A stretch of 64,000 nucleotides of DNA from a candidate division WWE3 bacterium (GCA_013335095.1 JAAXWF010000001.1:86797-150796), one strand, 5' to 3'; positions 9,935-50,236 are shown, numbered from the stretch's first letter. Made by a program: numbers and translations. Notes: generated by a model from the letters alone, not told the origin.

Positions 9935-10035
9935 GTAATTAATCTGTATTCTATATCATTGACTATAATCTGTTTATAGGTTAAGAAGATTAAGCGTAGT
10001 AGCAATCGGCATATTCACAATGGAAGAGGTGTATT

Positions 10036-12558
10036 ATGCGGGCATCGTATCGCAGGCGGTGGCAGCTGCTGTTTATACTCATGCTACTTTCTGCATGGGT
10101 ACCTTCAGCTGCACAGGCAACGGATCCTCCATCAAAGAGTTTTCGGTTTCCATGGACTGCTGGAGTGCCGTGGGTCTTCACAGGAGGGCCTCATGTTAGT
10201 GGCACTGGCAACACCATTCGCTCAGCTCTAGATTTTCAACCTAAAAACCAGGATCCCCGGGTACGCGCGGCGGATGGTGGAACTGTACTAAGCACGGATG
10301 ATGGTACTGGCAACATGTACATCGATCATGGAGGCGGATGGGTAACTTTTTACGCGCACATGGACAGCTTTACTGTCTCGGCTGGGAACCACGTCGATCG
10401 AGGCGATGTGGTTGGAGTGGCGGGTAGCAAAGGTACGAATAACATCCATTTGCACTTTGGCGTTCGTTACAACAGTCAGTGGCTAGAAATCGCTGGAGGT
10501 GGGGTCGATTTAGAAGGGTGGACGGTCGTAAAAGAGCCTGCAGTGTACTACGGATACCTCAAGAAAGGTTCCGCTCAGGTCTCAGCATGTTATGACTGTA
10601 CTCCCCTCCCTACTTTTGCGTCTGCGGAGTCGGATCCAGAGCAGGGTTACCCACGGTTAGACAGCACGGTGGAGCTTAGTCCCAATCCCGTAGTGGGGCA
10701 GGCTAACTTTTACCTGAGCTTCTGGCTGAAGAATGGCGGTGGTTCTGATTTTAGTGTCGGCGATGTAGTTATCTCTGGCACTTCGGCCAGCGGAGCGGCA
10801 TGGGATGCAGGTTGGAGTGGCACTCAAGTTATCGCTGCTGGTGATCGTAGATCGTTTCAACTCATCGGCACGGCGTATAACAATGACTTCGGAACGTGGT
10901 TGATTAAGAAGGAGATCAAGGTTAGAAGATCAGGATCTAACTCTTGGTACACGGCCTTACTGGGAAACTTCCCGTTCCCTGCAAGCTTCACTCACTCAGA
11001 TCCGACAGTACCACCTGTTCTAACGACCAACGTCCAGAACAGTCCAAGCAATCTGTGGGCTGGCGGTGAGCTGCAGTTCGCTTTCACTTTACAAAACCCT
11101 GGCTCAAGTGATTTTGATATCGAGGAGATCTTTATCAAAACCACTACTCCAGGCGGCGCGGAGTGGAAGTTTAACGCAACTCCAACTATCATCCCAGCAG
11201 GTCAGAGTCGTGACTTCGTGGCAAAGGCATCACTACCCAACGACTCACATGGCTGGTGGAACGTTACCAAGCGGATCGAGGTGAAAAAGCGTGGTGGTGG
11301 CTGGTACGGCATTGAGCAAGGACCGCATGCTTTCGCAGCAGAGTTCTATGTCAATCCGTACGACAGCACGGGACCAACGGTGTCCTTAACCCATCCCGTG
11401 GACAACTACTTCTACACCTACGAGATTCTGGCTACAGCCACTGCCTCAGATCAACAATCTGGGATCAAGCAGGTTGAGTTTCTCTTTAAGCTTGGTAACA
11501 CCTGGCAGACGCTGTGGGTCGACACGGATGGCACCGACGGATATAGCTTCAACTTCCCAGGGAACAGCTATGGCCCGCAATCTGATCTGTGGATTCTGGC
11601 CTATGCGGTTAACAACTCAGGAGTGCGAACGCAATCAGGTGCGGCGCGGTGGATAACCAACGTGGATACACAGAACCCTTCGGTGAGTGTCTACGGACCA
11701 TCGAGCGGCCAATCGTTTTCGGGTGACTACATCGACGTGTATGCTAATGCCAGCGATAACGTAGGAGTCGATCGTGTTACCTTCTACCTCGGCTATCCAG
11801 GCGGCGGCCCCGTCCCGATAACAGATGCCAATCCTGCTGACGGGTGGTCTGCTCGATTCGATATCCGTGACCTGCCCAATATGACCGGCATGTACGTCAA
11901 TGCCCATGCCTTTGACGCGAAGAACAACCGAGGCGATTCAGGCGCCATTAGCAGCTTGTCAATTGCTCGGTCGTGTCCTTGCTTCGAAGGTATTCGCACA
12001 GGGCAGGGATTTGGCAACACGATTGATGCTGTCTTAAACGTCCCGACCTCAGCAAACTGGGTAAACTTGTACCTGACCCCGCAAGGGCAAGGATTCAGAG
12101 GTGCTGGTGCTGTAAAGGGAGCTGACGGTAAGTGGCGAGCATCATGGAATGTGAGTGATTTGCCGGAAGGTGCAATACTCATGCTGGATGGTTGGATTGG
12201 TTATCCAAATGGCCAACAGCAGACACCAGTACTTACCGGTATGAAGATCGATCGGACAAATCCGACGATGCACCTTACGGGTCCAGGGTCTGGAGCGATC
12301 TTCAACAACACGGTTACGGTGACGGCTTCTGCAGAGGATCCGAACAACGGTAGCGGGGTCGAGAAGGTGGTATTCTACTTCGCATGGCCAGGGAATAGTC
12401 TCCCGGCAATTGTTGACTCGGACGGAAGTAACGGGTGGCAAGCGACCTTTGACACCTCAACGCTCGGACCGGGGAGCTACCGTCTCGATGCGTGGGTATA
12501 CGATAAAGCTGGAAAAGGAAGTCCATCACCTGAGGTCTGGTGGATAACTAAGAACTAG
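10036..12558 (+). CDS. secreted M23/LytM-family metallopeptidase with three C-terminal Ig-like (Big-type) domains
   Basis: The M23 core is HMDSFTVSAGNHVDRGDVVGVAGSKGTNNIHLHFGVRY, preceded by a signal peptide. Three repeated ~90-aa modules each contain ...P(S/T)(V/M)...G...SDxxSG(I/V)(K/E)xVxF(Y/L)... The region is visibly GC-rich. Confidence 0.8.
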   Translation: MRASYRRRWQLLFILMLLSAWVPSAAQATDPPSKSFRFPWTAGVPWVFTGGPHVSGTGNTIRSALDFQPKNQDPRVRAADGGTVLSTDDGTGNMYIDHGGGWVTFYAHMDSFTVSAGNHVDRGDVVGVAGSKGTNNIHLHFGVRYNSQWLEIAGGGVDLEGWTVVKEPAVYYGYLKKGSAQVSACYDCTPLPTFASAESDPEQGYPRLDSTVELSPNPVVGQANFYLSFWLKNGGGSDFSVGDVVISGTSASGAAWDAGWSGTQVIAAGDRRSFQLIGTAYNNDFGTWLIKKEIKVRRSGSNSWYTALLGNFPFPASFTHSDPTVPPVLTTNVQNSPSNLWAGGELQFAFTLQNPGSSDFDIEEIFIKTTTPGGAEWKFNATPTIIPAGQSRDFVAKASLPNDSHGWWNVTKRIEVKKRGGGWYGIEQGPHAFAAEFYVNPYDSTGPTVSLTHPVDNYFYTYEILATATASDQQSGIKQVEFLFKLGNTWQTLWVDTDGTDGYSFNFPGNSYGPQSDLWILAYAVNNSGVRTQSGAARWITNVDTQNPSVSVYGPSSGQSFSGDYIDVYANASDNVGVDRVTFYLGYPGGGPVPITDANPADGWSARFDIRDLPNMTGMYVNAHAFDAKNNRGDSGAISSLSIARSCPCFEGIRTGQGFGNTIDAVLNVPTSANWVNLYLTPQGQGFRGAGAVKGADGKWRASWNVSDLPEGAILMLDGWIGYPNGQQQTPVLTGMKIDRTNPTMHLTGPGSGAIFNNTVTVTASAEDPNNGSGVEKVVFYFAWPGNSLPAIVDSDGSNGWQATFDTSTLGPGSYRLDAWVYDKAGKGSPSPEVWWITKN

Positions 12559-12677: not shown

Positions 12678-12734
12678 ATACGTAGAAAACTTTTTAATAT
12701 GTTGGTAAATACAGAAGATAATAATGGCTCCGCG
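12678..12734. repeat. 57-bp direct repeat copy 2 (overlaps the 3' end of intact tRNA-Asn)
   Basis: Identical to 9163-9219. Confidence 0.8.
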
Positions 12735-12800
12735 GGTAGGGCTCGAACCTACGACATCCTCGTTAACAGCGAGGCGCTCTACCGACTGAGCTACCGCGGA
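12725..12800 (-). tRNA. tRNA-Asn (anticodon GTT)
   Basis: The reverse complement folds as a cloverleaf: TCCGCGG acceptor stem, anticodon loop CTGTTAA, T-loop GGTTCGAGCC, and a 3' CCA. It closely resembles E. coli tRNA-Asn. Confidence 0.9.
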
Positions 12801-35936: not shown

Positions 35937-38252
35937 ATGTGGGATAATTTGGCTTCCGTTTTAGCTACATGTATGACCGATATAACAGCGAGTATTTACT
36001 ACCTACTGACAATAGAACTTTTGGGACTGATGGCTTGGCCATTTGCCCGTAGAATTTTAAAGGATCTTCCAGATCAGGGCTGGGCATTTGCCAAAATTTT
36101 AGGAATCCTCATGGTTTCGTGGTTAATGTGGTTACTCGCTTCACTCCATGTGCTAAGTTTTTCATACACAAATTTAGTTGTAGTAACACTGGCGGTTGCC
36201 CTCTTTTCTATATTCATAGGTAACACAAAAATAACATTTGGGGATGTACGAAAAGTATGGGCGTGGCTTCTAATCGAAGAAATTTTATTTATCACAATGT
36301 TTGGCCTATGGACATATGTGAGAGGATTTAGTCCAGCGATAAACGGCTTAGAAAAGTTCATGGATTATGGATTTATGGTTTCAGCGTATAGATCTGAATA
36401 CTTTCCACCGCTAGATCACTTTTTAGCCCGGGAGACAATAAATTATTACTACTTTGGTCATTATATTGCGGCGATGCTCTCAAAATTATCACGAGTACCA
36501 ACTGAGTTCGCCTACAACTTACAAATGTCTGCAATTATGGCATTAACGTTAATTCAGGCGTTTGCCCTGGCTGCGAGCCTATTCTGGTTCAATATGACCG
36601 ACGAGTTCAAACGAATCCCGTGGAGAAGTTGGTTCAGTGGAATCATAGCCGCAATCGCAGTCACCTTATTTGGAAACCTGCATGCAGCATTTTATCTTTA
36701 TCAGCAAGGTGAAAAATATTGGTATCCCGATGCTACCAGATTCATCGAATACACTATCCATGAATTTCCAATCTACAGTTTTATTGTTAATGATCTTCAC
36801 GGACATGTTAGTGATATCCCAACCGTTCTGCTCGTTTTAGCCTTACTTCTGGTCATGTTTCGCCATTTATTTGATTCTATTGCGGAACGACGAAAGAACA
36901 ACCAGGAAACTCTTCTACAGCTAATCACCATGAATATGCCAGTAGCTTTCATCACATTGGCTTGGCTAATTGGTACAACGTATACGACAAATGCTTGGGA
37001 CTTTGCCATATATCTTGTGGTATCGGGTTGCCTGATATGGGGATGGAGAGCGAGTGAACTTAAGCAACCTCAAAATTTATTCTCACGTCTGTTTCAGGTG
37101 GACGTTCTTATGAAGACTGCTATAAATTCAATCTTTTTGATGTCGTTCGCGATTCTCTTGTACTTACCTTTTTGGCGGCATTTAGTTCCGATTAGTCAAG
37201 GTATTGGAATTGTTCCACCAAATGGACGATCACCACTATGGCAACTTGGAATATTATGGGGAGTACATCTGCCTATCGTACTTATATTTTTATTATGGTT
37301 GTTTGAAATACGCCTTGAAAAAATAAAATTCACCGAAAAGATCGTTGCATTTTTTGCAAATATTCTCCAGGTAAAAATAACAATAGAAAAAGAGAAAACC
37401 ACGGAGCACATCCATACGACGAACCCACACCTCATAACGTTATTAGGTAAAGAACTGACATCTACCGATTTCATAATCTTAATTATGATCCTGGTAAGTC
37501 TGTTGTTAATTATTGCACCTGAATTTATTTTTATACGGGATATTTATCCACAGCATTACCGGGCCAATACAATGTTTAAGTTTTACTATCAGGCATGGAT
37601 AATGCTCGGGACGGTGTTTGGATTCGCAATAATTCGTTTATGGGCACATTTTAATAGGCATCCGAGCATTTATGGTTACTTGTTTAAATTACTGAGCCTT
37701 GTACTTATCTACTCAGCGTTAATGTATCCGTATAAAGCTATCAACCAAGGGTTCTCGCTCAAAACACCACGCTTATCAATAAACGGAATAACGTATTTAA
37801 CGATGAATCACTATGGCGATTCTCTAGCGATTAAATGGATTAATGAGCACATAAAAGGTCAACCGACTATGCTTGAGGGCGTTGGTGATAGCTATACAGA
37901 CTATGCCCGTATTGCATCTAACACTGGATTACCAACCGTAATGGGATGGCCGGTCCATGAATGGTTGTGGCGTGGAACATATGGTGAATCAATTGTTCCC
38001 AAAACTTATATAGAGAAAAAAACAGGTCAGGTAGACACGGTTGGTAATCGAGTAGATCAAGTAAAGCTAATCTATGAGGGCACAGACCTGAATGAAACAC
38101 GGCAATTACTCGGCAAATACGAAGTAAATTATGTATATGTTGGTGACTTGGAAAGGCAAAAATATCCATCAATGAATGAAAATAAATTCAGCGAAATGGG
38201 TTTACCGGTAGTATATGATAAAGAAAATGTTAAAATTTATTTAGTCCAATGA
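35937..38252 (+). CDS. large polytopic membrane protein (DUF2298 / YYY-type, GT-C-associated)
   Basis: 771 aa with about 15 TM helices and a large C-terminal extracytoplasmic domain. The family assignment is tentative. Confidence 0.45.
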   Translation: MWDNLASVLATCMTDITASIYYLLTIELLGLMAWPFARRILKDLPDQGWAFAKILGILMVSWLMWLLASLHVLSFSYTNLVVVTLAVALFSIFIGNTKITFGDVRKVWAWLLIEEILFITMFGLWTYVRGFSPAINGLEKFMDYGFMVSAYRSEYFPPLDHFLARETINYYYFGHYIAAMLSKLSRVPTEFAYNLQMSAIMALTLIQAFALAASLFWFNMTDEFKRIPWRSWFSGIIAAIAVTLFGNLHAAFYLYQQGEKYWYPDATRFIEYTIHEFPIYSFIVNDLHGHVSDIPTVLLVLALLLVMFRHLFDSIAERRKNNQETLLQLITMNMPVAFITLAWLIGTTYTTNAWDFAIYLVVSGCLIWGWRASELKQPQNLFSRLFQVDVLMKTAINSIFLMSFAILLYLPFWRHLVPISQGIGIVPPNGRSPLWQLGILWGVHLPIVLIFLLWLFEIRLEKIKFTEKIVAFFANILQVKITIEKEKTTEHIHTTNPHLITLLGKELTSTDFIILIMILVSLLLIIAPEFIFIRDIYPQHYRANTMFKFYYQAWIMLGTVFGFAIIRLWAHFNRHPSIYGYLFKLLSLVLIYSALMYPYKAINQGFSLKTPRLSINGITYLTMNHYGDSLAIKWINEHIKGQPTMLEGVGDSYTDYARIASNTGLPTVMGWPVHEWLWRGTYGESIVPKTYIEKKTGQVDTVGNRVDQVKLIYEGTDLNETRQLLGKYEVNYVYVGDLERQKYPSMNENKFSEMGLPVVYDKENVKIYLVQ

Positions 38253-38668
38253 GATTTCAATTTAATACCGCTCTTATTATCAGGTTTTTTACTATTTTAT
38301 CGGCCATTTCAATGATTATATCCCCAGTTGCGTCAGCCAATGCATTTGGCGTTGCGTGTCCAAAAGAATCTGAGGTTTATATTGCTCTATTTGATTCATG
38401 TTTAAGCTTTGGTCCAGCGATAAGCCTGACAATTAGTTGGTCGCTTGCTATTGGTACGGTACTCGCGTTAGCCAAGCTTGCCATTGGAGCAATTCAATTT
38501 TCATTCTCTACTGGGGAACCAGGTAAATTGGCAAATGCTCGAGCTACCTTAACCGATGCCTTCCTCGGCATCATTTTGATTGCATCAGCATGGATTATCT
38601 TTCGATTTATTTCCGGCTCACTTCCGGATCAATGGGATATTGATCTTCTCTTTTTCGATTTAAGTTAA
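38249..38668 (+). CDS. two-helix pilin-like protein (VirB2/TrbC-like domain), paralog 1
   Basis: A signal peptide, then hydrophobic helix 1, loop STGEPGKLANARATLTD, and helix 2 AFLGIILIASAWIIFRFISG. Its start overlaps the stop of the 771-aa gene. Confidence 0.5.
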   Translation: MRFQFNTALIIRFFTILSAISMIISPVASANAFGVACPKESEVYIALFDSCLSFGPAISLTISWSLAIGTVLALAKLAIGAIQFSFSTGEPGKLANARATLTDAFLGIILIASAWIIFRFISGSLPDQWDIDLLFFDLS

Positions 38669-38677
38669 TCGTTACCG

Positions 38678-39748
38678 ATGAAAAATATTAGTCATTTATT
38701 TATACCAGTTAAACATAACGATCATAGGCCGTACTTAACCCGCCATCCGGCATTAGCGCTATTTCTTCTTTTAATAATGACAGTTCAAACAACACTTAAT
38801 ATATTTACCTCAACAAGACCTCAGATCCTTGGATTTGCGACAAGTATCTATCAACAAGAGATCATCAGCTATACAAATCAGGAAAGAGAAAAAGATGGTT
38901 TGCCTGCATTAGTACATAACGCAAAGCTTGATGAAGCGGCAAAATTAAAAGCCCAAGATATGTTTGCCAAAAACTATTGGGCTCATGTTTCGCCAGATGG
39001 TATTGATCCGTGGCATTGGTTTGCCATGGTAAATTATGACTATACATCGGCTGGAGAGAATTTAGCCCAAGGTTTTGATACTTCGCGCGGAGTTATAAGT
39101 GGATGGATGGCTTCCCCATCACACCGAGAAAACATCTTATATAACAAATTTACTGAAATAGGAGTTGCGATCTTAAACGGCAATTTAGAAGGTGAAGATA
39201 CAACGTTGGTAGTTCAATTATTCGGAACCCCACCTGCTACAGCACCCGCCGTCGTCGCCCAAGCCCAACCGACAATAAAACCTACTGTAATAGCAACAAA
39301 AGCGCCTACACAAAAACCAGCTCCTACCGTTCAACTAATTCCGACAGATATCCCAGCATCCCCTACCGCAACGAGTACACCGTCCTCTCTGCAACAAGAG
39401 CTAGCAGTCCAGCCGACCAATTTACCGACACAAATAACTACAATAACAGACAACACACCAACCCCGAATCCAGAAGTCATAGTTGGCCCAAGTGGTGACT
39501 TCACGAATACTCCCCCCTCAAGACTGACAATGGTAATGGCGGCTGTAAGCGATTTACGAAACCTCAGTCCTGCCCGAATTTTTACCATAATAATGATTTC
39601 GTTTATTGTTATTCTTTTTCTGATAGATTCTATCGTGCTGTGGTACAAAAAAGTACACCGCCAAAATGCACACCGATTAATTTACGCCAGTATTCTGGTA
39701 ATCGCACTAATTAATATTATTTATTCGTCGGTTGGACTAGTATTGTAA
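38678..39748 (+). CDS. CAP (SCP/PR-1, YkwD-like) domain protein with Pro/Thr linker and C-terminal TM anchor
   Basis: EREKDGLPALVHNAKLDEAAKLKAQDMFAKNYWAHVSPDG...GENLAQGF...GWMASPSHRENIL matches the CAP domain. Confidence 0.75.
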   Translation: MKNISHLFIPVKHNDHRPYLTRHPALALFLLLIMTVQTTLNIFTSTRPQILGFATSIYQQEIISYTNQEREKDGLPALVHNAKLDEAAKLKAQDMFAKNYWAHVSPDGIDPWHWFAMVNYDYTSAGENLAQGFDTSRGVISGWMASPSHRENILYNKFTEIGVAILNGNLEGEDTTLVVQLFGTPPATAPAVVAQAQPTIKPTVIATKAPTQKPAPTVQLIPTDIPASPTATSTPSSLQQELAVQPTNLPTQITTITDNTPTPNPEVIVGPSGDFTNTPPSRLTMVMAAVSDLRNLSPARIFTIIMISFIVILFLIDSIVLWYKKVHRQNAHRLIYASILVIALINIIYSSVGLVL

Positions 39749-39749
39749 T

Positions 39750-40004
39750 ATGTATCATTTTATAAAACACCATATTTTTCAATACGCCATAATATTATTA
39801 TTATTCAGTGTCACTGTTACAAGTTTGTCGTCTAATATTGCTATTGGATATAAATTCCTGTTCTCTGGTATTGCGGTTGGAGTCTATTTCTTTTGGGCAA
39901 TATGGCATCACTGGGAGGATCATAAACTATCTTCAAAGACAATTCTAGAATATGCACTTTTGGTAACCCTCCTTCTTTGGCTGCTTTTGAATCTAGCAGT
40001 TTAA
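39750..40004 (+). CDS. small hypothetical membrane protein
   Basis: Two TM helices. Confidence 0.35.
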   Translation: MYHFIKHHIFQYAIILLLFSVTVTSLSSNIAIGYKFLFSGIAVGVYFFWAIWHHWEDHKLSSKTILEYALLVTLLLWLLLNLAV

Positions 40005-41212
40005 TCAACCGATAACGAAGATCTATCAAGATGTTCTAAATACTTACGTAATACAAACCCAGCCGCAAGTATGCTCATACCAAAGACAACCTGAAATAGT
40101 TGAGCAATTAACTTGTTATTTGAACCGATTCCAGTCTCTGGGAGCCGCTGAGCATCAGTACCTAATACAGCTGGCTTAATCAGGTTAGCGGGTGTTGAAA
40201 CAGCCGCTAGGACTTTTTCTGTCAATGTCTGTAGCGGTTGAATAATAGATTCTTGAAGTACTGTATTGTTATCACGTTCCTCAGATTCATTTTGCCGTCC
40301 TCCAATAGGTACCGAAGTTGGATAAACACTAATTCCAGGGTTTGGAGTAGGGCTTACAATGGCATTTGAGCTAACGTTATTTTCAACACGTGTCACCGCA
40401 GAGATCGAACCAGTTCTAATCATGCAACCCACATTATCGTTACAGTGATTATTTCCGGTATTTTGTATTTTATTAATCTGATTGGAAATTTCGATATTAT
40501 TAGTTTGATAAGCGGTTATAGAGCTCGACAGATTAACAAGAATGTTATTATTACTGCCATTCCCATTATTACTATTTGCCATATTCAATACTCCGTCTTC
40601 AAAACTTATAGGCAATGCCACATTTCTGCCCATATCATTGGTGACACTAACCTCATCGTAAATATTCCCTGTTGATATAACAACGTCACCTGAACTCCAC
40701 AAAGCACTATTATTACCCGTATTTGCATCGATATCCAGTGCATTACTTACAATTGAATTATTTGACTGCCCCCAATAGGGCTCGTTGTTAATATCGGCAC
40801 TAATAATATTTGTCGAAAAAGAACCATTATTGTCATTAGTAGAAGCAATATTACCTGCGTTATTATTTGTAACCTGGAGAGTATTAACATCACCCTCAGA
40901 ATTAACCAGAACAGAAGAATTAATATCTCCAGTTTCGAGTTTATTTTGACCATTATTATTTTGGATCACATTATCACCGGAGTTCAATAATTGATTGATA
41001 TCATTATTAATCGTCGTAGTATTTGATTGTAAAGCGCTCTGACTGCTTGTAATACTTACACTAGCACCATTAACACTATCAAGGCTATTAGAACTATTCG
41101 AGATAATTACGTTAGCATAAATAGGATTAACATATATAAGAGAAGATAAGGTCATACAGACCAACAGCTTCGGGGCAGTGACAGTCGTAGTAATCATTGA
41201 CCGACACTTCAT
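40001..41212 (-). CDS. N/S/T-rich secreted surface protein with LPxTG sortase sorting signal
   Basis: Signal peptide, low-complexity N/S/T-rich body with ANTGNN and NTGNNH repeats. The C-terminus is RLPETGIGS followed by a hydrophobic stretch and an RKYLEH tail. Confidence 0.7.
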   Translation of the reverse strand: MKCRSMITTTVTAPKLLVCMTLSSLIYVNPIYANVIISNSSNSLDSVNGASVSITSSQSALQSNTTTINNDINQLLNSGDNVIQNNNGQNKLETGDINSSVLVNSEGDVNTLQVTNNNAGNIASTNDNNGSFSTNIISADINNEPYWGQSNNSIVSNALDIDANTGNNSALWSSGDVVISTGNIYDEVSVTNDMGRNVALPISFEDGVLNMANSNNGNGSNNNILVNLSSSITAYQTNNIEISNQINKIQNTGNNHCNDNVGCMIRTGSISAVTRVENNVSSNAIVSPTPNPGISVYPTSVPIGGRQNESEERDNNTVLQESIIQPLQTLTEKVLAAVSTPANLIKPAVLGTDAQRLPETGIGSNNKLIAQLFQVVFGMSILAAGFVLRKYLEHLDRSSLSVD

Positions 41213-43512
41213 ATTGAGAGTAAAAACTTTTTTCGGATTACAAAGAATCCAGCAACCAATAAACTACTTATTAATATACCGACCTTCCACGGATTCAATT
41301 TTGGCCACTCAACTCGAGCACCCGCAACCTGAATATCAGAAGAACTATCATCTGTTGAAGAAGTCGCAGCGATCCGTTTAACTTTTAGTTTATCCGAAGT
41401 ATTACTGTTATCATTGTTAGAATCATTCTTAACAGACGCTCCTAATACAGATACTATAGACTTGCGAGAAGTGCCATTTATCGAGCTATTCTTACCCGTT
41501 GCATTTCGTTCAGGAGCCTTCACTGCATCATTATCTAGCACGGGGTGATTAGAAGAAGACTCAGTAGTACCAATTACTTCTAAAGCGATTGGCGTTGGGA
41601 AGGCTTGCACTTCTGAAGAAGAGTCCACAGCAACTTCGACAGAGACTTGCTGCTGATTTCCGATATTTTCATTGTTTGTATTGTTATCGTTATTCTCATG
41701 AGCGACTTCCTGCGCTTTATTAGTAAATTTACCCGTCCATTTCCCAAACAAATCATTGACTATGGTAAATACAACTCGTCCTCCTGCAAAATTGTTATTC
41801 AAAAAGTTCGTTATTGAGCTAACGATATTTACATCACCGGTGTTAATGCTTGTACTACCATCAAGATTATCCGCAATCTTGTTACCTCCAGTATTCGCAT
41901 TAATATTTATCGTATTATTAACGACAGCTTCATTAACTTGATTAATTGTGGTTGAATCTTCACGATTTACTACACCAGCATTCTCCGAATCTGTACCGTT
42001 ATTTGAATTATTAACATCAGATGAAATCTCGACAAGATCACCCGCACGATTTATATAATACGCTTTCAACTGTCCCCCTTGATTTAAGAATATTACATTC
42101 AAATCATCGCCAATAAAGTTTTGATTAGCAACAGTATTAACCTCGGCCGAAGTATTAACAGCTCCTGTTGTTATCGAATTTCCTTGCCCATCTCCATTAA
42201 TGTTATCTGATAATTTGTTTGACCCAGTGTTTGCGTCAATAACTAAAGTATTATTTATTGTGGCATTATTCTGTTGGTTGATTAATGTGTTTGATGAATC
42301 AGAGATTGTTCCATTATTAATTGAATTAGAGCCGTTACCTGAGTTATTAATTGCATAACTAGGATCAGCACTCTTTAATGGACTTTGATCAGGTAATACT
42401 ATATTGCCAGCAAAATCACCTAAAATATTTACGGTATTCACAACTAAGTCCGTGAGTGCAACAAAACTATTGTTGAGAAAATTAAATATATTCGCAACGA
42501 CGTTTGCATTACCAGTATTAATACTTGAATCACCAACGCTATCGGAAATCGTATTGGATCCTGTTTCTACGTCAATATTAATACTATTATCTACCTGTGA
42601 AAAATTATCAGTAGTAATAAATAAATTATTTCCACTTTGTATAATTCCAGAATTCACGCTGGATGATCCATTATTATCATTATTCACGCTTGCATCACCA
42701 TCACACGGGTTTATAGCGCTACAATTACTTGAGCCTGCGCTCAAAATAATATCTCCTGATTGATCGTCGGCTACATTAAACTCACTAGAAGAGATATCTG
42801 CACCCGTTAAATTAGTATTCGCAAAGTTGAAAATATTAACCGCACTTGTTACGTCTCCTGAATTAATAGTGCTACTACCACCTAGGTTATCGTGTATCTT
42901 ATTATCTCCAGTAACATAATCAACATTCACGCTGTTGTTAATATCTGTTTGATTCAATACATCGACAGTAGTGTCCGAAGCACCAGTTATGCTGCCGTTA
43001 TTCTCTGAACTCGCCTCATTTTGGATATTTGATACGCTAGTGTCTCCTCCATTTGAACCATCAAACAAACTCTGATTGTTATTCACATCATTATTGGTAT
43101 TAATAGATCCGTCAATAGAGCCGCTGTCGATTAAAGCGCTTCCTGAAAGATTATCATTATTATTCTGACCGCCATTAATTTGAGAATCGGGGTTATTCTG
43201 ACCACTATTTACAACTGTTGGAATTGGAGTCGGAGTTTTTGTTGGCTTTGGAGTCTTGGTTGGGATTGGTGTGTTAGAAATCTGGGTAACAGTAGGAACA
43301 CTTTGTGGCGTTGCCGTTGGTTGAATTGCTTGAGTCGGGGTTTGTGGAGGAGTCGGCATAGTCCAAACCGTAGTTGGCATAGCTGGTGGAGTAGGTATTG
43401 TTAAGGCTGGTGTTGGAGAAACATTAGTAACAGCGAAAGATAGTACTGGATTTACGATACTATATGCAATTTGTATTGTTATAAATGATTTTATTAATGT
43501 TTTGTTCATCAT
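41209..43512 (-). CDS. large N/T/S/G-rich secreted surface protein with Pro/Thr N-terminal linker and C-terminal TM anchor
   Basis: Signal peptide, PT-rich region, and repeated IDANTGSNKLSDN / INANTGGNKIADN motifs. ATGA overlaps the downstream gene. Confidence 0.6.
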   Translation of the reverse strand: MMNKTLIKSFITIQIAYSIVNPVLSFAVTNVSPTPALTIPTPPAMPTTVWTMPTPPQTPTQAIQPTATPQSVPTVTQISNTPIPTKTPKPTKTPTPIPTVVNSGQNNPDSQINGGQNNNDNLSGSALIDSGSIDGSINTNNDVNNNQSLFDGSNGGDTSVSNIQNEASSENNGSITGASDTTVDVLNQTDINNSVNVDYVTGDNKIHDNLGGSSTINSGDVTSAVNIFNFANTNLTGADISSSEFNVADDQSGDIILSAGSSNCSAINPCDGDASVNNDNNGSSSVNSGIIQSGNNLFITTDNFSQVDNSINIDVETGSNTISDSVGDSSINTGNANVVANIFNFLNNSFVALTDLVVNTVNILGDFAGNIVLPDQSPLKSADPSYAINNSGNGSNSINNGTISDSSNTLINQQNNATINNTLVIDANTGSNKLSDNINGDGQGNSITTGAVNTSAEVNTVANQNFIGDDLNVIFLNQGGQLKAYYINRAGDLVEISSDVNNSNNGTDSENAGVVNREDSTTINQVNEAVVNNTININANTGGNKIADNLDGSTSINTGDVNIVSSITNFLNNNFAGGRVVFTIVNDLFGKWTGKFTNKAQEVAHENNDNNTNNENIGNQQQVSVEVAVDSSSEVQAFPTPIALEVIGTTESSSNHPVLDNDAVKAPERNATGKNSSINGTSRKSIVSVLGASVKNDSNNDNSNTSDKLKVKRIAATSSTDDSSSDIQVAGARVEWPKLNPWKVGILISSLLVAGFFVIRKKFLLSI

Positions 43513-43593
43513 ATTTTTTCCTTCTACAAAAGGGTTTACCGCAGGAGAGAATAACTCCTCTCCTGACGGAAAACGCTCTTGCTTCTTTGCACA

Positions 43594-44799
43594 CTAACTG
43601 AGGAGATGCATTAGCATCATTAAAATGCTTGCACCATTCCAATCACCACTTAAATCATGAAGATCTGAGGTGGTGTCACCAATCACGTTTTGTCCTGCGG
43701 TATTATGTACCTCGACATCTGAATCTACGTCACCGGTATTCATATCATCTGAATTGTTATCAGAGATTTGATTATCTCCAGTGGCACCGTGTTGGTCTGC
43801 ATTATTATCGAAGGAGAGTTCATCATTGAACTGTTGGAACAGATCAGCAAAAGATAGTTCGAGACCAGCTTCGTTTTCTGTATCACGACCATTCTTTTCA
43901 TTAAGAACCTCAACATCGACATCACACATACAATCTCCTGCTGCAAGTACATTAGCACCAGCAGTATTGGCAATCTTGGCAGTCTGATCGACTGAGCCAG
44001 TTTCGGCAGCAGCTCCGCCTAGGTTATCCTTTGCGTCGTTGTCACCAGTGTTTGCATGTTGATCTAAATTGTTATCAACATCAACTTCATTTGATTGCAC
44101 CGCAACATTGGAGTGATTCACATTAGCGAAAACGCTATTTTCTGAATCTCGACCATTTGTTGAATTGGTTAAGGAGAATGAGCTAGATCCACCATTTCGT
44201 GAACCTAAGACAGCATGATTACCACCTGAGAGTGTTTCAACACTAGCATCTTGGTCAACATCTCCTGTTTGTACCGAGACTTCGGTATCAGAATTGTTGT
44301 CTTTCAAAGCATTATCGCCAGTATTAGCGTTTTGCTTAAGCTTGTTATTTACATCGACATTATTGGTTTGCATTAATGAAGATGCTTGTGTAGCGTTAAA
44401 TGCTGCAGTGTTTTCTGAATCTCGACCATTCTTTTCGTTAACGATCTCAACATCATAATCACAATCGCATTGTTGTAATTGCGCGACATTTTCACCAGCA
44501 TTGTTTACAACGCTTGCTTCCTGGTTTACATCACCAGTTTTAACATCGACACCTCCCAAATTGTCTTGTACTTTATTATCACCTGTATTAGCGTTTTGAT
44601 TGATATTGTTATCAATCTGAACATTATTAGTCTGATATACGCTAGATTCACGATTAATTTGAATCGTGCCTGAATTCTGGCTATCTCGACCGTTGGTGGA
44701 ATTCGTAATAGTATAAGTCGCAGCAAAAGCTGGTTGGGCCATTTGGAGCAGTAAAGCTCCGGTAGCTACTCCGGTTGCAATTTTTTGTGTTATTTTCAT
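43594..44799 (-). CDS. secreted repeat protein (four ~95-aa repeats with CDCD motifs)
   Basis: Signal peptide MKITQKIATGVATGALLLQMAQPAFA. The repeats contain NSTNGRDSQNS ... QNANTGDNKVQDN ... KTGDV ... CDCDYDVEIVNEKNGRDSEN. An AGGAGG RBS precedes the start. Confidence 0.6.
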   Translation of the reverse strand: MKITQKIATGVATGALLLQMAQPAFAATYTITNSTNGRDSQNSGTIQINRESSVYQTNNVQIDNNINQNANTGDNKVQDNLGGVDVKTGDVNQEASVVNNAGENVAQLQQCDCDYDVEIVNEKNGRDSENTAAFNATQASSLMQTNNVDVNNKLKQNANTGDNALKDNNSDTEVSVQTGDVDQDASVETLSGGNHAVLGSRNGGSSSFSLTNSTNGRDSENSVFANVNHSNVAVQSNEVDVDNNLDQHANTGDNDAKDNLGGAAAETGSVDQTAKIANTAGANVLAAGDCMCDVDVEVLNEKNGRDTENEAGLELSFADLFQQFNDELSFDNNADQHGATGDNQISDNNSDDMNTGDVDSDVEVHNTAGQNVIGDTTSDLHDLSGDWNGASILMMLMHLLS

Positions 44800-44861
44800 T
44801 CTATTCACCTCCTTTCGCAATTAGTCCCTTGTATAAGTGTTATCTTTATTTAACTAGGGCT

Positions 44862-45443
44862 TTAAAACTTAACTGATAAATTATCTTTATTTCCATCGAG
44901 CTCTCCAATTTGAATTGCAAAATCTTTAGCATCGTGCTCTACAATAAACCCAAAGTTACTCTTTTTAGTTGACTGAGGACGGACCTCGACATTACCTTGA
45001 TGAACTTGAGGTGCAACTTTGCCACCATCAGATTCAACAAGTCTCACTAAATCAAGAGGATTAAGATAGAGCACTTGATTACTGTCGTTCTTCAATGAAA
45101 CTTCAAATATTAAAAAAGCTTTACCATTTCTTGCTGTTGCACGATTACCTTTTACTAAAACTTCTTCCTGTTTTTGAACCGTAGTAATTTTTAGGTTTAT
45201 ATTTGCATCAGTAAAGTAGCCTTGTGCATCTCGAGCGATAAAATTATATTCTTTATTCAGAGTCTTTGAAGCTATGACACCTTCGGCATCATTTGTTTTT
45301 GATTTTGAAATAAAATAACTTCGAATACCTATCCCCATACCCACGACGACAATTATCATAACTAGCAAAAATATTTTATTTGAGATGAGTGATTTCATGA
45401 GTGGTTTTGACTGATTTGTTGTTTTCATATTTTTTGTATTCAT
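44862..45443 (-). CDS. membrane-anchored DUF4352-like protein
   Basis: N-terminal TM helix followed by a beta-rich domain. Confidence 0.4.
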   Translation of the reverse strand: MNTKNMKTTNQSKPLMKSLISNKIFLLVMIIVVVGMGIGIRSYFISKSKTNDAEGVIASKTLNKEYNFIARDAQGYFTDANINLKITTVQKQEEVLVKGNRATARNGKAFLIFEVSLKNDSNQVLYLNPLDLVRLVESDGGKVAPQVHQGNVEVRPQSTKKSNFGFIVEHDAKDFAIQIGELDGNKDNLSVKF

Positions 45444-45444
45444 A

Positions 45445-45498
45445 TCAAAAAAGGCACGGAATATTTAACAAATAAGTAGTTGTTAAATATTCCGTGCC
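45445..45498 (-). terminator. rho-independent terminator with a perfect 19-bp stem
   Basis: ggcacggaatatttaacaa-ataagtag-ttgttaaatattccgtgcc. On the minus strand it is followed by ttttttga, just downstream of the YezD-like gene. Confidence 0.6.
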
Positions 45499-45574
45499 TC
45501 CGATTGCGGTCAGCTTTGTTTGTTAGATTGTTTACATAATTTAACAATCCCAATTCCTAATGTCAATAACTATT

Positions 45575-45781
45575 TCATTTACTATCGGTAGATTGCCTTT
45601 TATCCGGCAAAACACCACTATTGGGATCTAGTTTTTTTATTGTTCGCTCAGTAATTTGGGTAACCTGATAATCTTGTATATAGATTTCAACACTCCCATA
45701 AGATTTATTCTTAATAGCATCAGTGATTGCCTCAAGCAGCTCAGAGCTAATACTCTTGGTTGAAAAATTATATTTAGCCAT
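45575..45781 (-). CDS. YezD/DUF2292 family small protein
   Basis: AITDAIKNKSYGSVEIYIQDYQVTQITERTIKKL matches the GSVEIxIxDxxVVQI core. Confidence 0.55.
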   Translation of the reverse strand: MAKYNFSTKSISSELLEAITDAIKNKSYGSVEIYIQDYQVTQITERTIKKLDPNSGVLPDKRQSTDSK

Positions 45782-45944
45782 AGCTATATTAAAAAACAAT
45801 GGTCAGTGAGGAAAATCGCAGCCTTGAGTTGTAGGCTGTTCACAATTATAGGGAGAGCTTATTTAGTGTCAATAGGATCGTCAATTAATCCCTTTGTAGA
45901 AGTTCAAATTGACATCAATACTTTTTGGCCGTATTATTCGCTTT

Positions 45945-47111
45945 ATGTCGAGACGAACAAATATCCAATACAAGAAAGCATTCGTTACGCTTTTTTTAAC
46001 AATGGTATTCTCTACTAAATTTGCAACTCATGTTACGGCAGCAACCTTTATAGCTGAAAATGCTCCTAAATTAAATAAAGAAGAAACCGTCGATGGGAAC
46101 TTCTATTCCCGTGGCAATCTAGTATCTGTCAATGGCACAATCCACGGAAATGCATATATAGCAGGCCAAACAGTAACAATTACTGGAAAAATCGATAAAG
46201 ACTTAACCGTTGCGGGACAAAACATCATACTTGATGAAGCATCAATATCAGGTGATGTGCGTTTATTTGGTGGCGAGGTCACGATACGAAAATCAGAAAT
46301 AGGAGACGAAGTAATTGTAGCTGCGGCAAAATTAAATATAGGTAAGGATACAAAAATTAACGGAACTACCATGGTAGCATCTGGAGAGTCCGTTATTGAT
46401 GCAAGCATTGGCGAGGATCTTATTACGGCATCAGGGTCACTTTCAAGTTCGGCAATTATTAACGGATCAGTATACATTGGAGGACGAAGTATTTCATTGT
46501 CTCCTGAAGCCCAGGTTCAAGGAGATATTTTCTACTCCTCAGACAACAAAGCACAAATAGATCCATCCACGAAGATTACGGGACAAGTCCACCAATTTCC
46601 ACCACTTCAAAGCGCACCTTCCAATAATCACATTCGCCTCACTATTTGGGGAATATTAACGTCACTAGTTTTAGGCTTTACCATCATTAGCCTTTTTTAC
46701 CATAAAACTTATGAACTATCCCAAATACTTATAGAGAGGACTTGGAGTTCATTTGGATGGGGGTTTGCAACGATTATACTTACTCCGATAATTAGTGTGT
46801 TATTAATCACTACGTTAATAGGATTACCATTAGGTATTATTACATTATTTTTCTATATACTTGCCATTTATATCAGTCGCATTTTTATGGCATATACACT
46901 AGGTCGATTATTTATCGGTCGTGGCAACACCGATACTTCACAGAGACGATGGTATACTCTCGGTGCTGGTATTCTCGCGTACTTCATAATCACCTCTATT
47001 CCATTTATAGGGCCTATATTCACCCTGTTTAGTATTACATTAGTCTTAGGGGCGATGTTTATTGAAGGTCGCCATTGGTTTATTTCTAGAAATGTCAAAG
47101 AAAACAACTAA
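45945..47111 (+). CDS. secreted beta-helical repeat protein (YvlB/DUF4097 or bactofilin-like repeats) with C-terminal multi-TM anchor
   Basis: Repetitive G-x-hydrophobic periodicity (VNGTIHGNAYIAGQTVTITGKIDKDLTVAGQNIILD...), then four TM helices. Confidence 0.45.
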   Translation: MSRRTNIQYKKAFVTLFLTMVFSTKFATHVTAATFIAENAPKLNKEETVDGNFYSRGNLVSVNGTIHGNAYIAGQTVTITGKIDKDLTVAGQNIILDEASISGDVRLFGGEVTIRKSEIGDEVIVAAAKLNIGKDTKINGTTMVASGESVIDASIGEDLITASGSLSSSAIINGSVYIGGRSISLSPEAQVQGDIFYSSDNKAQIDPSTKITGQVHQFPPLQSAPSNNHIRLTIWGILTSLVLGFTIISLFYHKTYELSQILIERTWSSFGWGFATIILTPIISVLLITTLIGLPLGIITLFFYILAIYISRIFMAYTLGRLFIGRGNTDTSQRRWYTLGAGILAYFIITSIPFIGPIFTLFSITLVLGAMFIEGRHWFISRNVKENN

Positions 47112-49402: not shown

Positions 49403-50236
49403 TTAAAGTGATACCGCTTTAATTAATTCTCCGACAGCAATATAACGTTGATGATCAAATCCCGGTGGTATACAAGTCATAAGCGTTAACATTTTCTTAT
49501 TCGACGGTTGATTCGTAATAAATACATCCTTTGGAGTAACAACGCCAGTTTGGCTAATCTGATAAGTATACTCGGTTCCCATATAAATAACGCGTACGAC
49601 ATCGCCTGCCTTTATTTTTGGTAAATCAGTAAAAATAGATTCATAGTCATTTGATGCCAGTAGGGGTAACTTAGAGTGACCAAATAGGAATGAGTTCCCA
49701 TTTTGGCCCGGTAATGCAGATCCTTTTAGATGGGCGACGGCTCGAGTTAGTACCCGATCATAAATGTGTTCGTCTGTCCCATTCACATTCAGCTCAACTT
49801 TACGATTGTCGATTCCTAGCGCCGGGACAGATACGAAGACTTCACTATCAATCTTTTCTGAAAGTACGCTTCCAAGTGGTGATGAATCTTGCCGAAGAAT
49901 CGAAAGAGAGGAACCCGGGGTTGGTGAAGGTATCATTTTTGTCGGTGAAGGTGTTGATTTATTGGGGTTTAATAATAAATTTCCAAAGCCGGTACGAATA
50001 TCTATTGTTGTGCCATCCTCCGAATTCATCTGGACAGCAGAAATCACAGACGGAGTATCGACGGTAAATAACGCGGTGTTATCGAATTTCGGTAATGTAT
50101 TGCTCCATATGAAATAGATCCAACCCAAATATACTAATCCAACTCCCCCTACAGTTATCAGGGCAGCTCCTATCAAACGGGGAAAATGATATCTGTATTC
50201 AAGGACGATCGGTTCCATTCTGTTCGTCGTTTCCAC
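49403..50236 (-). CDS. sortase family transpeptidase
   Basis: N-terminal TM anchor. Catalytic His in FLFGHS. Cys in the TLxTC motif LTLMTCIPPG, followed by a conserved Arg. Confidence 0.8.
   Translation of the reverse strand: METTNRMEPIVLEYRYHFPRLIGAALITVGGVGLVYLGWIYFIWSNTLPKFDNTALFTVDTPSVISAVQMNSEDGTTIDIRTGFGNLLLNPNKSTPSPTKMIPSPTPGSSLSILRQDSSPLGSVLSEKIDSEVFVSVPALGIDNRKVELNVNGTDEHIYDRVLTRAVAHLKGSALPGQNGNSFLFGHSKLPLLASNDYESIFTDLPKIKAGDVVRVIYMGTEYTYQISQTGVVTPKDVFITNQPSNKKMLTLMTCIPPGFDHQRYIAVGELIKAVSL

Follow-up and report, generated by a model that had tools for sequence, protein, structure and literature searches.

Three consecutive genes on the minus strand of a 64,000-nucleotide stretch of a candidate division WWE3 bacterium genome (GCA_013335095.1 JAAXWF010000001.1:86797-150796; hereafter the window) encode secreted proteins that appear to display one unnamed repeat domain in three ways: free in the protein we call A, on a membrane-anchored stalk in B, and on a wall-anchored linker in C. 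We give roughly even chances to the reading that A, B, and C would be the structural proteins of a Patescibacteria-specific surface assembly, in the form of a fibre, sheath, or coat. An earlier note on this DNA had proposed a fibre, sheath, or surface-layer (S-layer)-like structure, and such a structure is plausible on architectural grounds, namely an unanchored, strongly translated A encoded beside wall- and membrane-anchored paralogues. As far as the libraries and the literature that we searched show, the repeat domain, the gene cassette that carries it, and an RNA motif in the spacer between A and B are undescribed. Coordinates are collected in Table 1.

The open reading frames (ORFs) of A, B, and C encode 401, 767, and 403 residues, as the earlier note had said, and Sec-type signal peptides were read by eye from all three sequences. 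For example, the N-terminus of C is hydrophobic and ends in ..NPIYA, followed by NVI. The start of A is most likely the ATG at 44799, since a strong Shine-Dalgarno (SD) sequence (AAGGAGGTG) lies 6 nt upstream; the TTG at 44820, from which the ORF would count 408 residues, is probably a mechanical first start only. All three proteins are acidic, with isoelectric points (pI) of 4.0-4.4, and Asn makes up 15-16% of their residues; A has a mass of ~40 kDa and a pI of ~4. A matches 'hypothetical protein HGA91_00705 [candidate division WWE3 bacterium]' at 100% identity, while HGA91_00700 is identical to B.

To describe the repeat, we used a single-repeat hidden Markov model (HMM) trained on 1817 repeat instances, which located four repeats in A (48-77 bits), four in B (43-56 bits), and three in C (37-50 bits). 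The best domains of A, B, and C scored 77, 56, and 49 bits, while the maximum among 900 composition-matched shuffled copies was 8.9 bits. The short motif reported earlier as common to all three proteins likewise stood above a shuffled-sequence control. TG[DGSN]N occurs four times in A, four times in B, and twice in C, against means of 0.15, 0.36, and 0.13 in residue shuffles, and the observed count was reached in 0/2000, 0/2000, and 13/2000 trials, respectively. BLASTP with composition-based statistics aligned A with C (1e-27), A with B (2e-17), and B with C (9e-10). The earlier note had named two grounds for giving up its proposal, a motif frequency explained by N/T-rich composition and a lack of mutual homology, and with these results neither ground holds. 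Judged from sequence, the repeat goes beyond Asn-rich composition, and A, B, and C are paralogues built on it.

The repeat consensus reads IxISGNGxDSxN...VxQxNxAxVxNxVxxxANTGxNxAxxNTGGxVxIxTGDAxxxVxVxNxANxNxAxV, then CxC, and the 13-residue motif is the most conserved section of a much longer unit of ~89 residues. Its period is 87-91 residues in A and C, shorter than the ~95 first estimated for A, and 112-116 residues in B, because a hydrophobic insert of ~25 residues follows every B repeat. A does contain four repeats and the paired CDCD and CMCD cysteines that had been attributed to it, but these CxC pairs are confined to the junctions of repeats 1/2 and 3/4, so A is a 2 x 2 duplication. In an alignment of 34 divergent orthologues, every repeat carries invariant Q, N, and G residues at corresponding positions.

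The repeat had not been recognised as any named domain, and this was borne out in Pfam, NCBIfam, and the PDB. Scans of A, B, and C against Pfam and NCBIfam returned nothing above threshold, and no catalytic or lectin domain was detectable in them. No Pfam model, chaplin and curlin included, matched A, B, or C at E <= 1, and PDB sequence and profile searches with the repeat proteins found no matching chain. The named homologues are all hypothetical proteins of Patescibacteria, one B homologue being mislabelled 'PPE family protein, nonfunctional'. An exhaustive metagenome profile search returned 3352 cluster representatives at E <= 1e-3, 1053 of them at E <= 1e-30, and the family is conserved down to 30-40% identity across thousands of proteins. 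When a single-repeat profile was used to look for relatives outside the candidate phyla radiation (CPR), only 30 small one-repeat proteins were found, and the named ones were CPR. The repeat family is large and unannotated and, as far as we can see from these searches, CPR-restricted. One-repeat paralogues of ~110-120 residues exist elsewhere, with none in the window. Among the distant matches of the B search, three proteins of about 750-1200 residues (P0290, P0293, and P0296) join the repeat to DUF11 (PF01345) and other surface-repeat domains, so the repeat may be a mobile module in other CPR surface proteins.

The three paralogues differ in how they end. The LPETG that had been noted on the last gene, C, occupies residues 357-361 and is followed by a hydrophobic segment and a charged tail (RKYLEH..), and C is the sole LPxTG-type substrate among the ORFs of the window. 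The C-type tails of related loci carry LP[AVI]TG, a transmembrane (TM) helix, and YLRLRSGRSPN in 37 of 54 proteins and a GLSxTS variant in 11 more (48/54 in total). Given a canonical LPETG on C and a sortase in the conserved cassette, covalent linkage of C to peptidoglycan is to be expected. LPxTG is found in 0/67 B-type proteins. The sequence K-x-(I/V)-NLAW stands directly before a TM helix and a basic cluster in 56 of these 67 proteins, and VEWPKLNPW (..KLNPW-TM-RKK) is the window's variant of the NLAW motif. With this conserved juxtamembrane motif, a TM helix, and basic residues, B would be held in the membrane on its long low-complexity stalk. The tripartite end of B is laid out like a protein-sorting signal, unlike any named one, and we regard NLAW as a second candidate sorting signal. 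As for A, an LPxTG-like match was found in only one of 80 A-type proteins. The tail of this type has a conserved acidic and aromatic consensus, WPDFDFxFSFDLxDLLDxLGL, at which AlphaFold placed a low-confidence helix in A, and it could be a docking or assembly peptide.

A survey of GTDB species representatives returned 80 loci, mostly from Microgenomatia; the lineages were Daviesbacteria, Levybacteria, Gottesmanbacteria, Woesebacteria, Roizmanbacteria, Curtissbacteria, Chisholmbacteria, Microgenomates, and Doudnabacteria. The cassette was found in most genomes sampled, and in ~80 Patescibacteria genomes its order is nearly fixed: DUF4352, DUF2292, A, B, C, sortase, and often a two-repeat paralogue. 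This order was already visible in loci L002 and L003. The member counts in Table 1 are lower bounds, because ORF calling was crude, and their denominators are testable loci. The earlier note described an operon of three genes. Its single expression unit stood, and the translational coupling of B and C through an ATGA overlap is real, but the unit extends to a conserved cassette of six or seven genes in about 80 Patescibacteria genomes. The sortase of the window falls below every NCBIfam class cut-off, the best being class C (68 bits vs 160). The two-repeat paralogue is Lys-rich, with AKTGKNKA in place of ANTGDNDA (e.g., L002:13954-14553 (-), L006:15140-15742 (-), and L053:15255-15863 (-)), and is basic (pI 7.7-9.2) in most of the eight copies checked; it is not present in the window. 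Paralogues of one, two, three, and four repeats co-occur. A second sortase lies upstream in loci L007, L017, L018, L049, L050, L066, L076, and L081. Many of the metagenome-assembled genomes that bear the cassette (L004, L010, L013-L017, and others) are titled 'uncultured Gammaproteobacteria bacterium', and L073 is titled 'Candidatus Nanoarchaeia archaeon'; such names are probably placeholders or misassigned.

A and B differ in their signals for translation and in RNA structure. A strong SD (AGGAGG or GGAGGT matched in at least 5/6 positions) stands before A in 64/67 loci and, in the same search, before B in only 5/67; the B leaders are A/U-rich. The A-B spacer is strongly structured relative to shuffles in 66/67 loci (mean z -6.1). 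In 55 loci, a hairpin lies 24-43 nt past the A stop codon (e.g., L024:7097-7151 and L061:5617-5671), with an outer stem GUAGGG/CCCUAC and an invariant loop segment CACUU (usually GCACUUC). We built a covariance model from 11 hairpin copies, a plain MAFFT alignment having recovered just a fragment of the structure. The model (R1) found one site per locus, always in the A-B spacer, and nothing else better than E 0.03 across 1.37 Mb. In its 49 matches, 89.7% of cells are paired vs 69.4% when shuffled and 38-49% with partners slid, and 16/18 pairs show compensatory changes, in an alignment that was fitted to the model and so favours pairing. The hairpin of the window is divergent in sequence from the motif of its relatives and unmatched by the model; it stands in the same place and is equally stable. 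A search of Rfam with the spacer hairpin returned nothing better than E 0.48, all far below gathering score. A 19-base hairpin pattern was matched in 104 metagenome contigs, with a repeat-family ORF ending <=120 nt upstream in 61 of the 99 testable; the remaining contigs look like unrelated GC-rich matches.

A T-rich tail follows the hairpin in only 4/67 loci, which makes a role as a classic intrinsic terminator unlikely. Consequently, we infer that the hairpin stabilises the mRNA at its 3' end or serves as a site of processing or of protein binding. Pairing of the GCACUUC loop with the ribosome-binding site of B is unsupported, as no GAAGUG occurs in the 55 B leaders examined. Taken together, the contrast in SD strength and the spacer hairpin suggest that more A is made than B and C. 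Many loci also carry, between the hairpin and the start of B, which lacks an SD, two or three tandem direct repeats of 6-8 nt (e.g., CGATTAA x3, AGTAACA x3, and AAAGTTT x3), which fall in the 30 nt before the B start codon in L006, L008, L011, L018-L021, L047, L058, L071, and others.

Structure prediction and covariation were used to approach the fold. From an alignment of 34 sequences, AlphaFold modelled A as an all-beta protein with strands of up to 31 residues and an identical strand pattern in every repeat (predicted local distance difference test, pLDDT, 78; predicted template modelling score, pTM, 0.68). Residues 105-600 of B (57 sequences) gave the same strand pattern at pLDDT 64.5. Of the weak Foldseek matches, nearly all belong to the parallel beta-helix or solenoid class (SufBD, pectate and alginate lyases, tailspikes, AlgE4, RTX, and an SRRP adhesin). 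CsgA (8c50) and FapC (9u4u) are among the top weak, non-significant neighbours, and no immunoglobulin (Ig)-like protein is among those of the A and B models. Mean-field direct coupling analysis (DCA) of 1640 distinct repeats placed columns 27-52 and 60-84 antiparallel (i+j about 112-114) around an NTGGD turn, such that ANTGxN (columns 45-50) faces TGD (columns 63-66) and the N-terminal NGxDSxN loop touches the tip. Coupling was seen solely at conserved, inward-facing odd positions (scores 1.3-3.8, >99th percentile, two partners each), whereas outward positions are highly variable (3.0-3.5 bits of entropy) and lack cross-strand coupling.

An inward-only antiparallel zipper with invariant Q, N, and G fits face-to-face stacked beta-arches better than a free two-stranded hairpin, so we favour a model of stacked arches, as a solenoid or a cross-beta plank with Asn/Gln ladders. 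A solenoid rung of 22 residues (4 x 22 = 88) was rejected because the DCA contacts are antiparallel, with constant i+j, and not at a constant offset. The earlier note had suggested looking with AlphaFold for a beta-solenoid or beta-roll. The all-beta models, the weak beta-helix neighbours, and the arch-like covariation agree with the former, but a regular-expression search found no RTX GGxGxDxUx nonapeptide in A, B, or C, as a roll of that kind would carry.

In the assembly we propose, A would be the abundant building block, made in large excess. Wall-linked C and membrane-linked B would act as tethers or nucleators, to whose repeat domains A would dock by homotypic beta contacts between repeats. 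From these anchored proteins, A would extend on the cell wall to form a fibre, sheath, or coat. Each repeat would most likely form one wide beta-arch layer and stack on its neighbour through Asn/Gln/Gly ladders; the resulting cross-beta or beta-solenoid-like plank could run on between molecules. DUF4352, DUF2292, and the basic two-repeat paralogue would be accessory factors. A bolder form of this proposal, which we consider rather doubtful, would make the ~89-residue repeat a new fold class, one wide serpentine beta-arch layer. Four such layers, linked covalently in A, would stack in register through Asn/Gln ladders into an amyloid-like cross-beta plank that continues across molecules. The cis-acting hairpin with its conserved GCACUUC loop would then set the stoichiometry, a cassette factor such as the DUF2292 protein might recognise the hairpin, and the plank, templated on C and B, would be the main surface fibre or sheath of Microgenomatia and WWE3.

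Several observations weigh against the proposed assembly. In the window, the sortase is not adjacent to C but ~3.6 kb upstream of the cassette. A U-tail is missing from the hairpin in 63/67 loci, so any effect of the hairpin on expression is putative. Of the five AlphaFold models of A, four had a pLDDT of 43-54 and a single one was confident, and Foldseek found no significant neighbour of the A and B models in the PDB (best E 0.05, TM-scores < 0.1). The stacked-layer reading draws on indirect signs. DCA of tandem repeats is dominated by same-column couplings, which shared repeat ancestry also yields, and same-column mutual information in adjacent vs non-adjacent repeats (including repeats 1 and 4, head to tail) showed no difference beyond repeat identity. 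The curlin repeat (PF07012; Sx5QxGxGNxAx3Q) is unmatched in A, B, and C, with no Pfam model at E <= 1, and homology to curlin was rejected when hhalign of the A family with E. coli CsgA gave a probability of 0.8%. The proteins are also very polar and acidic (pI ~4), a character as fitting for a hydrated coat or an adhesin as for a fibre.

An adhesin is what we would regard as a serious, albeit unlikely, alternative: B and C would display a beta-helix-like module on stalks, A would be soluble or loosely wall-associated, and all would act as monomeric, non-polymerising proteins that bind surface polymers of a host cell, in keeping with an episymbiotic CPR bacterium. The weak structural neighbours include carbohydrate-binding or -cleaving beta-helices, adhesins (SRRP, tapirin, and Ag43), and phage tailspikes; B and C are anchored as ordinary Gram-positive surface proteins are; and CPR-enriched families are thought to serve cell-cell interaction (PMC6744442). 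However, this leaves unexplained why the member with four repeats and no anchor, A, has the strongest translation signals, its own 3' hairpin, and the highest conservation, and why paralogues of one to four repeats co-occur, and the Pfam and NCBIfam scans detected no catalytic or lectin domain. A could instead be the protein of a two-dimensional S-layer-type lattice, which B and C (and elsewhere the basic two-repeat paralogue) would keep on the wall by non-covalent contacts; its acidity, lack of an anchor, mass of ~40 kDa, and abundance as judged from expression signals would fit. Some Patescibacteria are reported to have S-layers (review PMC13293708), and the basic paralogue, with a pI of 7.7-9.2 in most copies, could serve as a bridge between the wall and an acidic lattice. 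Yet neither Pfam nor NCBIfam revealed an SLH or other known wall-binding module, PDB sequence, profile, and Foldseek searches gave no similarity to solved S-layer proteins, and the basic paralogue is missing from the window. Nor do the data separate a two-dimensional lattice from a one-dimensional fibre. We judge a lattice improbable.

Two further readings fare worse. Three structural genes next to a sortase recall a classical Gram-positive-type pilus in which A, B, and C would be pilins joined covalently by the sortase, and the best, sub-threshold NCBIfam match of that enzyme is class C (68 bits vs 160). The sorting signal is on C only, however, and is missing from 79/80 A-type and 67/67 B-type proteins. 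A regular-expression search found no YPK pilin motif or E-box (the sole [YFW]PK being the WPK beside the B TM helix), Pfam found no CnaA, CnaB, or other Ig-like pilin domain, and the AlphaFold models are not Ig-like. A sortase-polymerised pilus was rejected for its missing sorting signals and pilin motifs, and we consider it very improbable. The other reading is that the repeats are merely Asn-rich sequence of an AT-rich genome, with no defined domain at all. An Asn share of 15-16% and the large HMMER bias terms of A, B, and C would fit such a composition artefact. Against this, the best real domains reached 49-77 bits while shuffles scored <= 8.9 bits, 34 divergent orthologues share invariant positions, the repeat shows structured covariation, and it is conserved to 30-40% identity in thousands of proteins. 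The shuffle scores, invariant positions, and covariation exclude this reading, to which we assign next to no probability.

By analogy, the operating logic of the proposed surface assembly, in which paralogues tether the main component, would be one already known from chaplins and curli, with a new domain at its centre. Among the chaplins, the long forms combine two chaplin domains with a sortase signal and are believed to tether the layer that the short, free forms build (PMC5618241). The likeness of the cassette to the Streptomyces chaplins (ChpA-C long, ChpD-H short; PF03777/DUF320) is an analogy of architecture only, with one domain in free and sortase-anchored forms and conserved cysteine pairs in both systems (PMC5618241); here the free forms also include one- and two-repeat paralogues. 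There is no sequence relationship, with no Pfam model at E <= 1 to A, B, or C. The repeat is ~89 residues long and very polar and acidic, whereas the chaplin domain is ~55 residues long and hydrophobic; moreover, the free form here, A, has four repeats, and a membrane-anchored paralogue, B, is added. With curli (CsgA/CsgB) and Fap, functional amyloids that are beta-solenoids of strand-turn-strand repeats, A, B, and C share imperfect Asn/Gln/Gly-rich repeats conserved at the same positions and a major secreted subunit with a surface-tethered paralogue that could nucleate it. However, the repeat of CsgA measures 19-23 residues, against ~89 here, a sortase or a TM helix provides the anchor on a cell without an outer membrane, and the likeness to CsgA and FapC amounts to Foldseek E >= 0.05 with TM-scores < 0.1 only.

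Other comparisons are with more distant systems. C has the signal peptide, LPETG, hydrophobic segment, and charged tail of Gram-positive LPXTG proteins, and a sortase in its cassette, but its passenger is an unnamed repeat, the sortase falls below all curated class thresholds, and the substrate belongs to a fixed cassette of several paralogues. Pam pili are built of PamA/PamB, two-domain beta-sandwich/Ig-like pilins that undergo donor-strand exchange, and have been reported in Microgenomatia (bioRxiv 10.64898/2026.03.03.709456). They are likewise a CPR-restricted surface system with Sec-exported subunits and paired cysteines (bioRxiv 10.64898/2026.03.03.709456). That paper draws no link between the pam operon and a sortase, and it nowhere uses the words 'repeat', 'LPXTG', or 'asparagine' (bioRxiv 10.64898/2026.03.03.709456). 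By their described architecture, Pam pilins differ from the proteins here, which consist of three to four equal tandem repeats of ~89 residues, and Pam pili are a different system from this cassette. With parallel beta-helices and RTX beta-rolls, A and B share all-beta models, long regular strands, and almost all of their weak Foldseek neighbours, and Asn ladders are plausible. The differences are that no match is significant, the GGxGxD nonapeptide is missing, the ~89-residue period is several times that of a normal rung, and every repeat, judged by covariation, contains an extended antiparallel zipper.

Uncultivated Microgenomatia and related lineages make up a large share of bacterial diversity. 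They are believed to live attached to other cells, and their molecularly known surface structures are type IV pili and the newly described Pam pili only. Sortase is nearly ubiquitous in Microgenomates, where it was reported with no known substrates discussed, and 35 Microgenomates-enriched, mostly hypothetical families were listed in the same study without characterisation (Méheust et al., PMC6744442). Being widespread in the sample, restricted to Patescibacteria within the reach of our searches, provided with its own sortase, and built on an unnamed domain that has neither a solved structure nor a significant structural neighbour, the cassette is a prime candidate for a major envelope structure. 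It offers testable objects: a secreted A of ~40 kDa, an LPxTG substrate, a candidate NLAW signal, and a covarying hairpin absent from Rfam. A stacked cross-beta architecture, if true, would widen the range of natural beta-solenoid or functional-amyloid architectures.

Table 1. Features of the repeat-protein cassette and its surroundings; positions are counted from the first letter of the window, and rows placed in related loci give the number of loci with the member
Feature	Position	Strand	Details
Gene A	43594..44799	-	401-aa secreted, unanchored protein; signal peptide, four ~89-aa repeats, acidic/hydrophobic C-terminal tail
Shine-Dalgarno of A, AAGGAGGTG	44806..44814	-	strong; 6 nt upstream of ATG
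A repeat 1	44461..44724	-	repeat HMM 76.7 bits; CDCD at end
A repeat 2	44194..44460	-	repeat HMM 60.4 bits
A repeat 3	43924..44187	-	repeat HMM 72.1 bits; CMCD at end
A repeat 4	43663..43923	-	repeat HMM 48.1 bits
A C-terminal tail, ..DLHDLSGDWNGASILMMLMHLLS	43597..43662	-	alignment; too short and too acidic for a TM anchor
RNA hairpin, A-B spacer	43526..43582	-	minimum free energy -32.5 kcal/mol, z -5.87, 0/200 shuffles as stable
Gene B	41209..43512	-	767 aa; signal peptide, Pro/Thr-rich segment, four repeats with inserts, low-complexity stalk, C-terminal TM helix and RKK
B repeat 1	42784..43050	-	repeat HMM 51.8 bits
B repeat 2	42442..42702	-	repeat HMM 43.3 bits
B repeat 3	42097..42366	-	repeat HMM 49.1 bits
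B repeat 4	41770..42030	-	repeat HMM 56.1 bits
B C-terminal anchor: VEWPKLNPW, TM helix VGILISSLLVAGFFVI, then RKK	41212..41313	-	sequence and family comparison
B stop/C start ATGA overlap	41209..41212	-	sequence; translational coupling
Gene C	40001..41212	-	403 aa; signal peptide, three repeats, linker, LPETG sorting signal
C repeat 1	40856..41119	-	repeat HMM 36.8 bits; degenerate, NSGDN replaces NTGxN
C repeat 2	40610..40855	-	repeat HMM 49.4 bits
C repeat 3	40343..40597	-	repeat HMM 49.7 bits
C cell-wall sorting signal: LPETG, hydrophobic segment, charged tail	40004..40144	-	sequence
DUF4352 protein	44862..45443	-	193 aa, N-terminal TM helix and extracytoplasmic domain; PF11611, E 6.5e-6, 26.9 bits vs cut-off 25.9
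Terminator-like element between DUF2292 and DUF4352 genes	45442..45499	-	terminator scan; perfect 20-bp stem, 8-nt loop, T-run
DUF2292 (YezD-like) cytoplasmic protein	45575..45799	-	74 aa; PF10055, 28.8 bits vs cut-off 22
Sigma-70-like promoter upstream of DUF2292 gene	45845..45872	-	consensus scan, pattern match only; 12/12 consensus (TTGACA-16-TATAAT)
Sortase	49403..50236	-	277 aa, N-terminal TM helix; PF04203, E 5.8e-22
DUF4352 membrane protein upstream of A	related loci		73/76
DUF2292 small protein, just upstream of A	related loci		67/76
A, ~400-450 aa	related loci		reference gene
B, ~700-800 aa	related loci		67/75
C, ~370-400 aa (~190-275 aa in some)	related loci		54/62
Sortase directly after C	related loci		41/50
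Two-repeat paralogue, ~200 aa, opposite strand, after sortase	related loci		25/38

The DUF2292 gene is preceded by a perfect match to the promoter consensus and followed by a terminator-like hairpin, so it may form a short transcription unit of its own. On the plus strand, the divergent neighbour at 45909-47111 encodes a 400-residue protein with a bactofilin-like beta-helical segment (PF04519, 27.1 bits; cut-off 27.9) and several C-terminal TM helices. Just downstream of C, also on the plus strand, are a small membrane protein resembling a type IV secretion system (T4SS) pilin (38249-38668; PF18895, 26.8 bits) and a CAP-domain protein whose linker is Pro/Thr-rich and whose C-terminus has a TM helix (38678-39748). 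Elsewhere in the window, positions 10001-12000 have a G+C content of 0.53 vs ~0.38-0.44 for the rest; no rRNA or other Rfam family was found there, and only a tRNA-Asn lies nearby, at 12725-12800.

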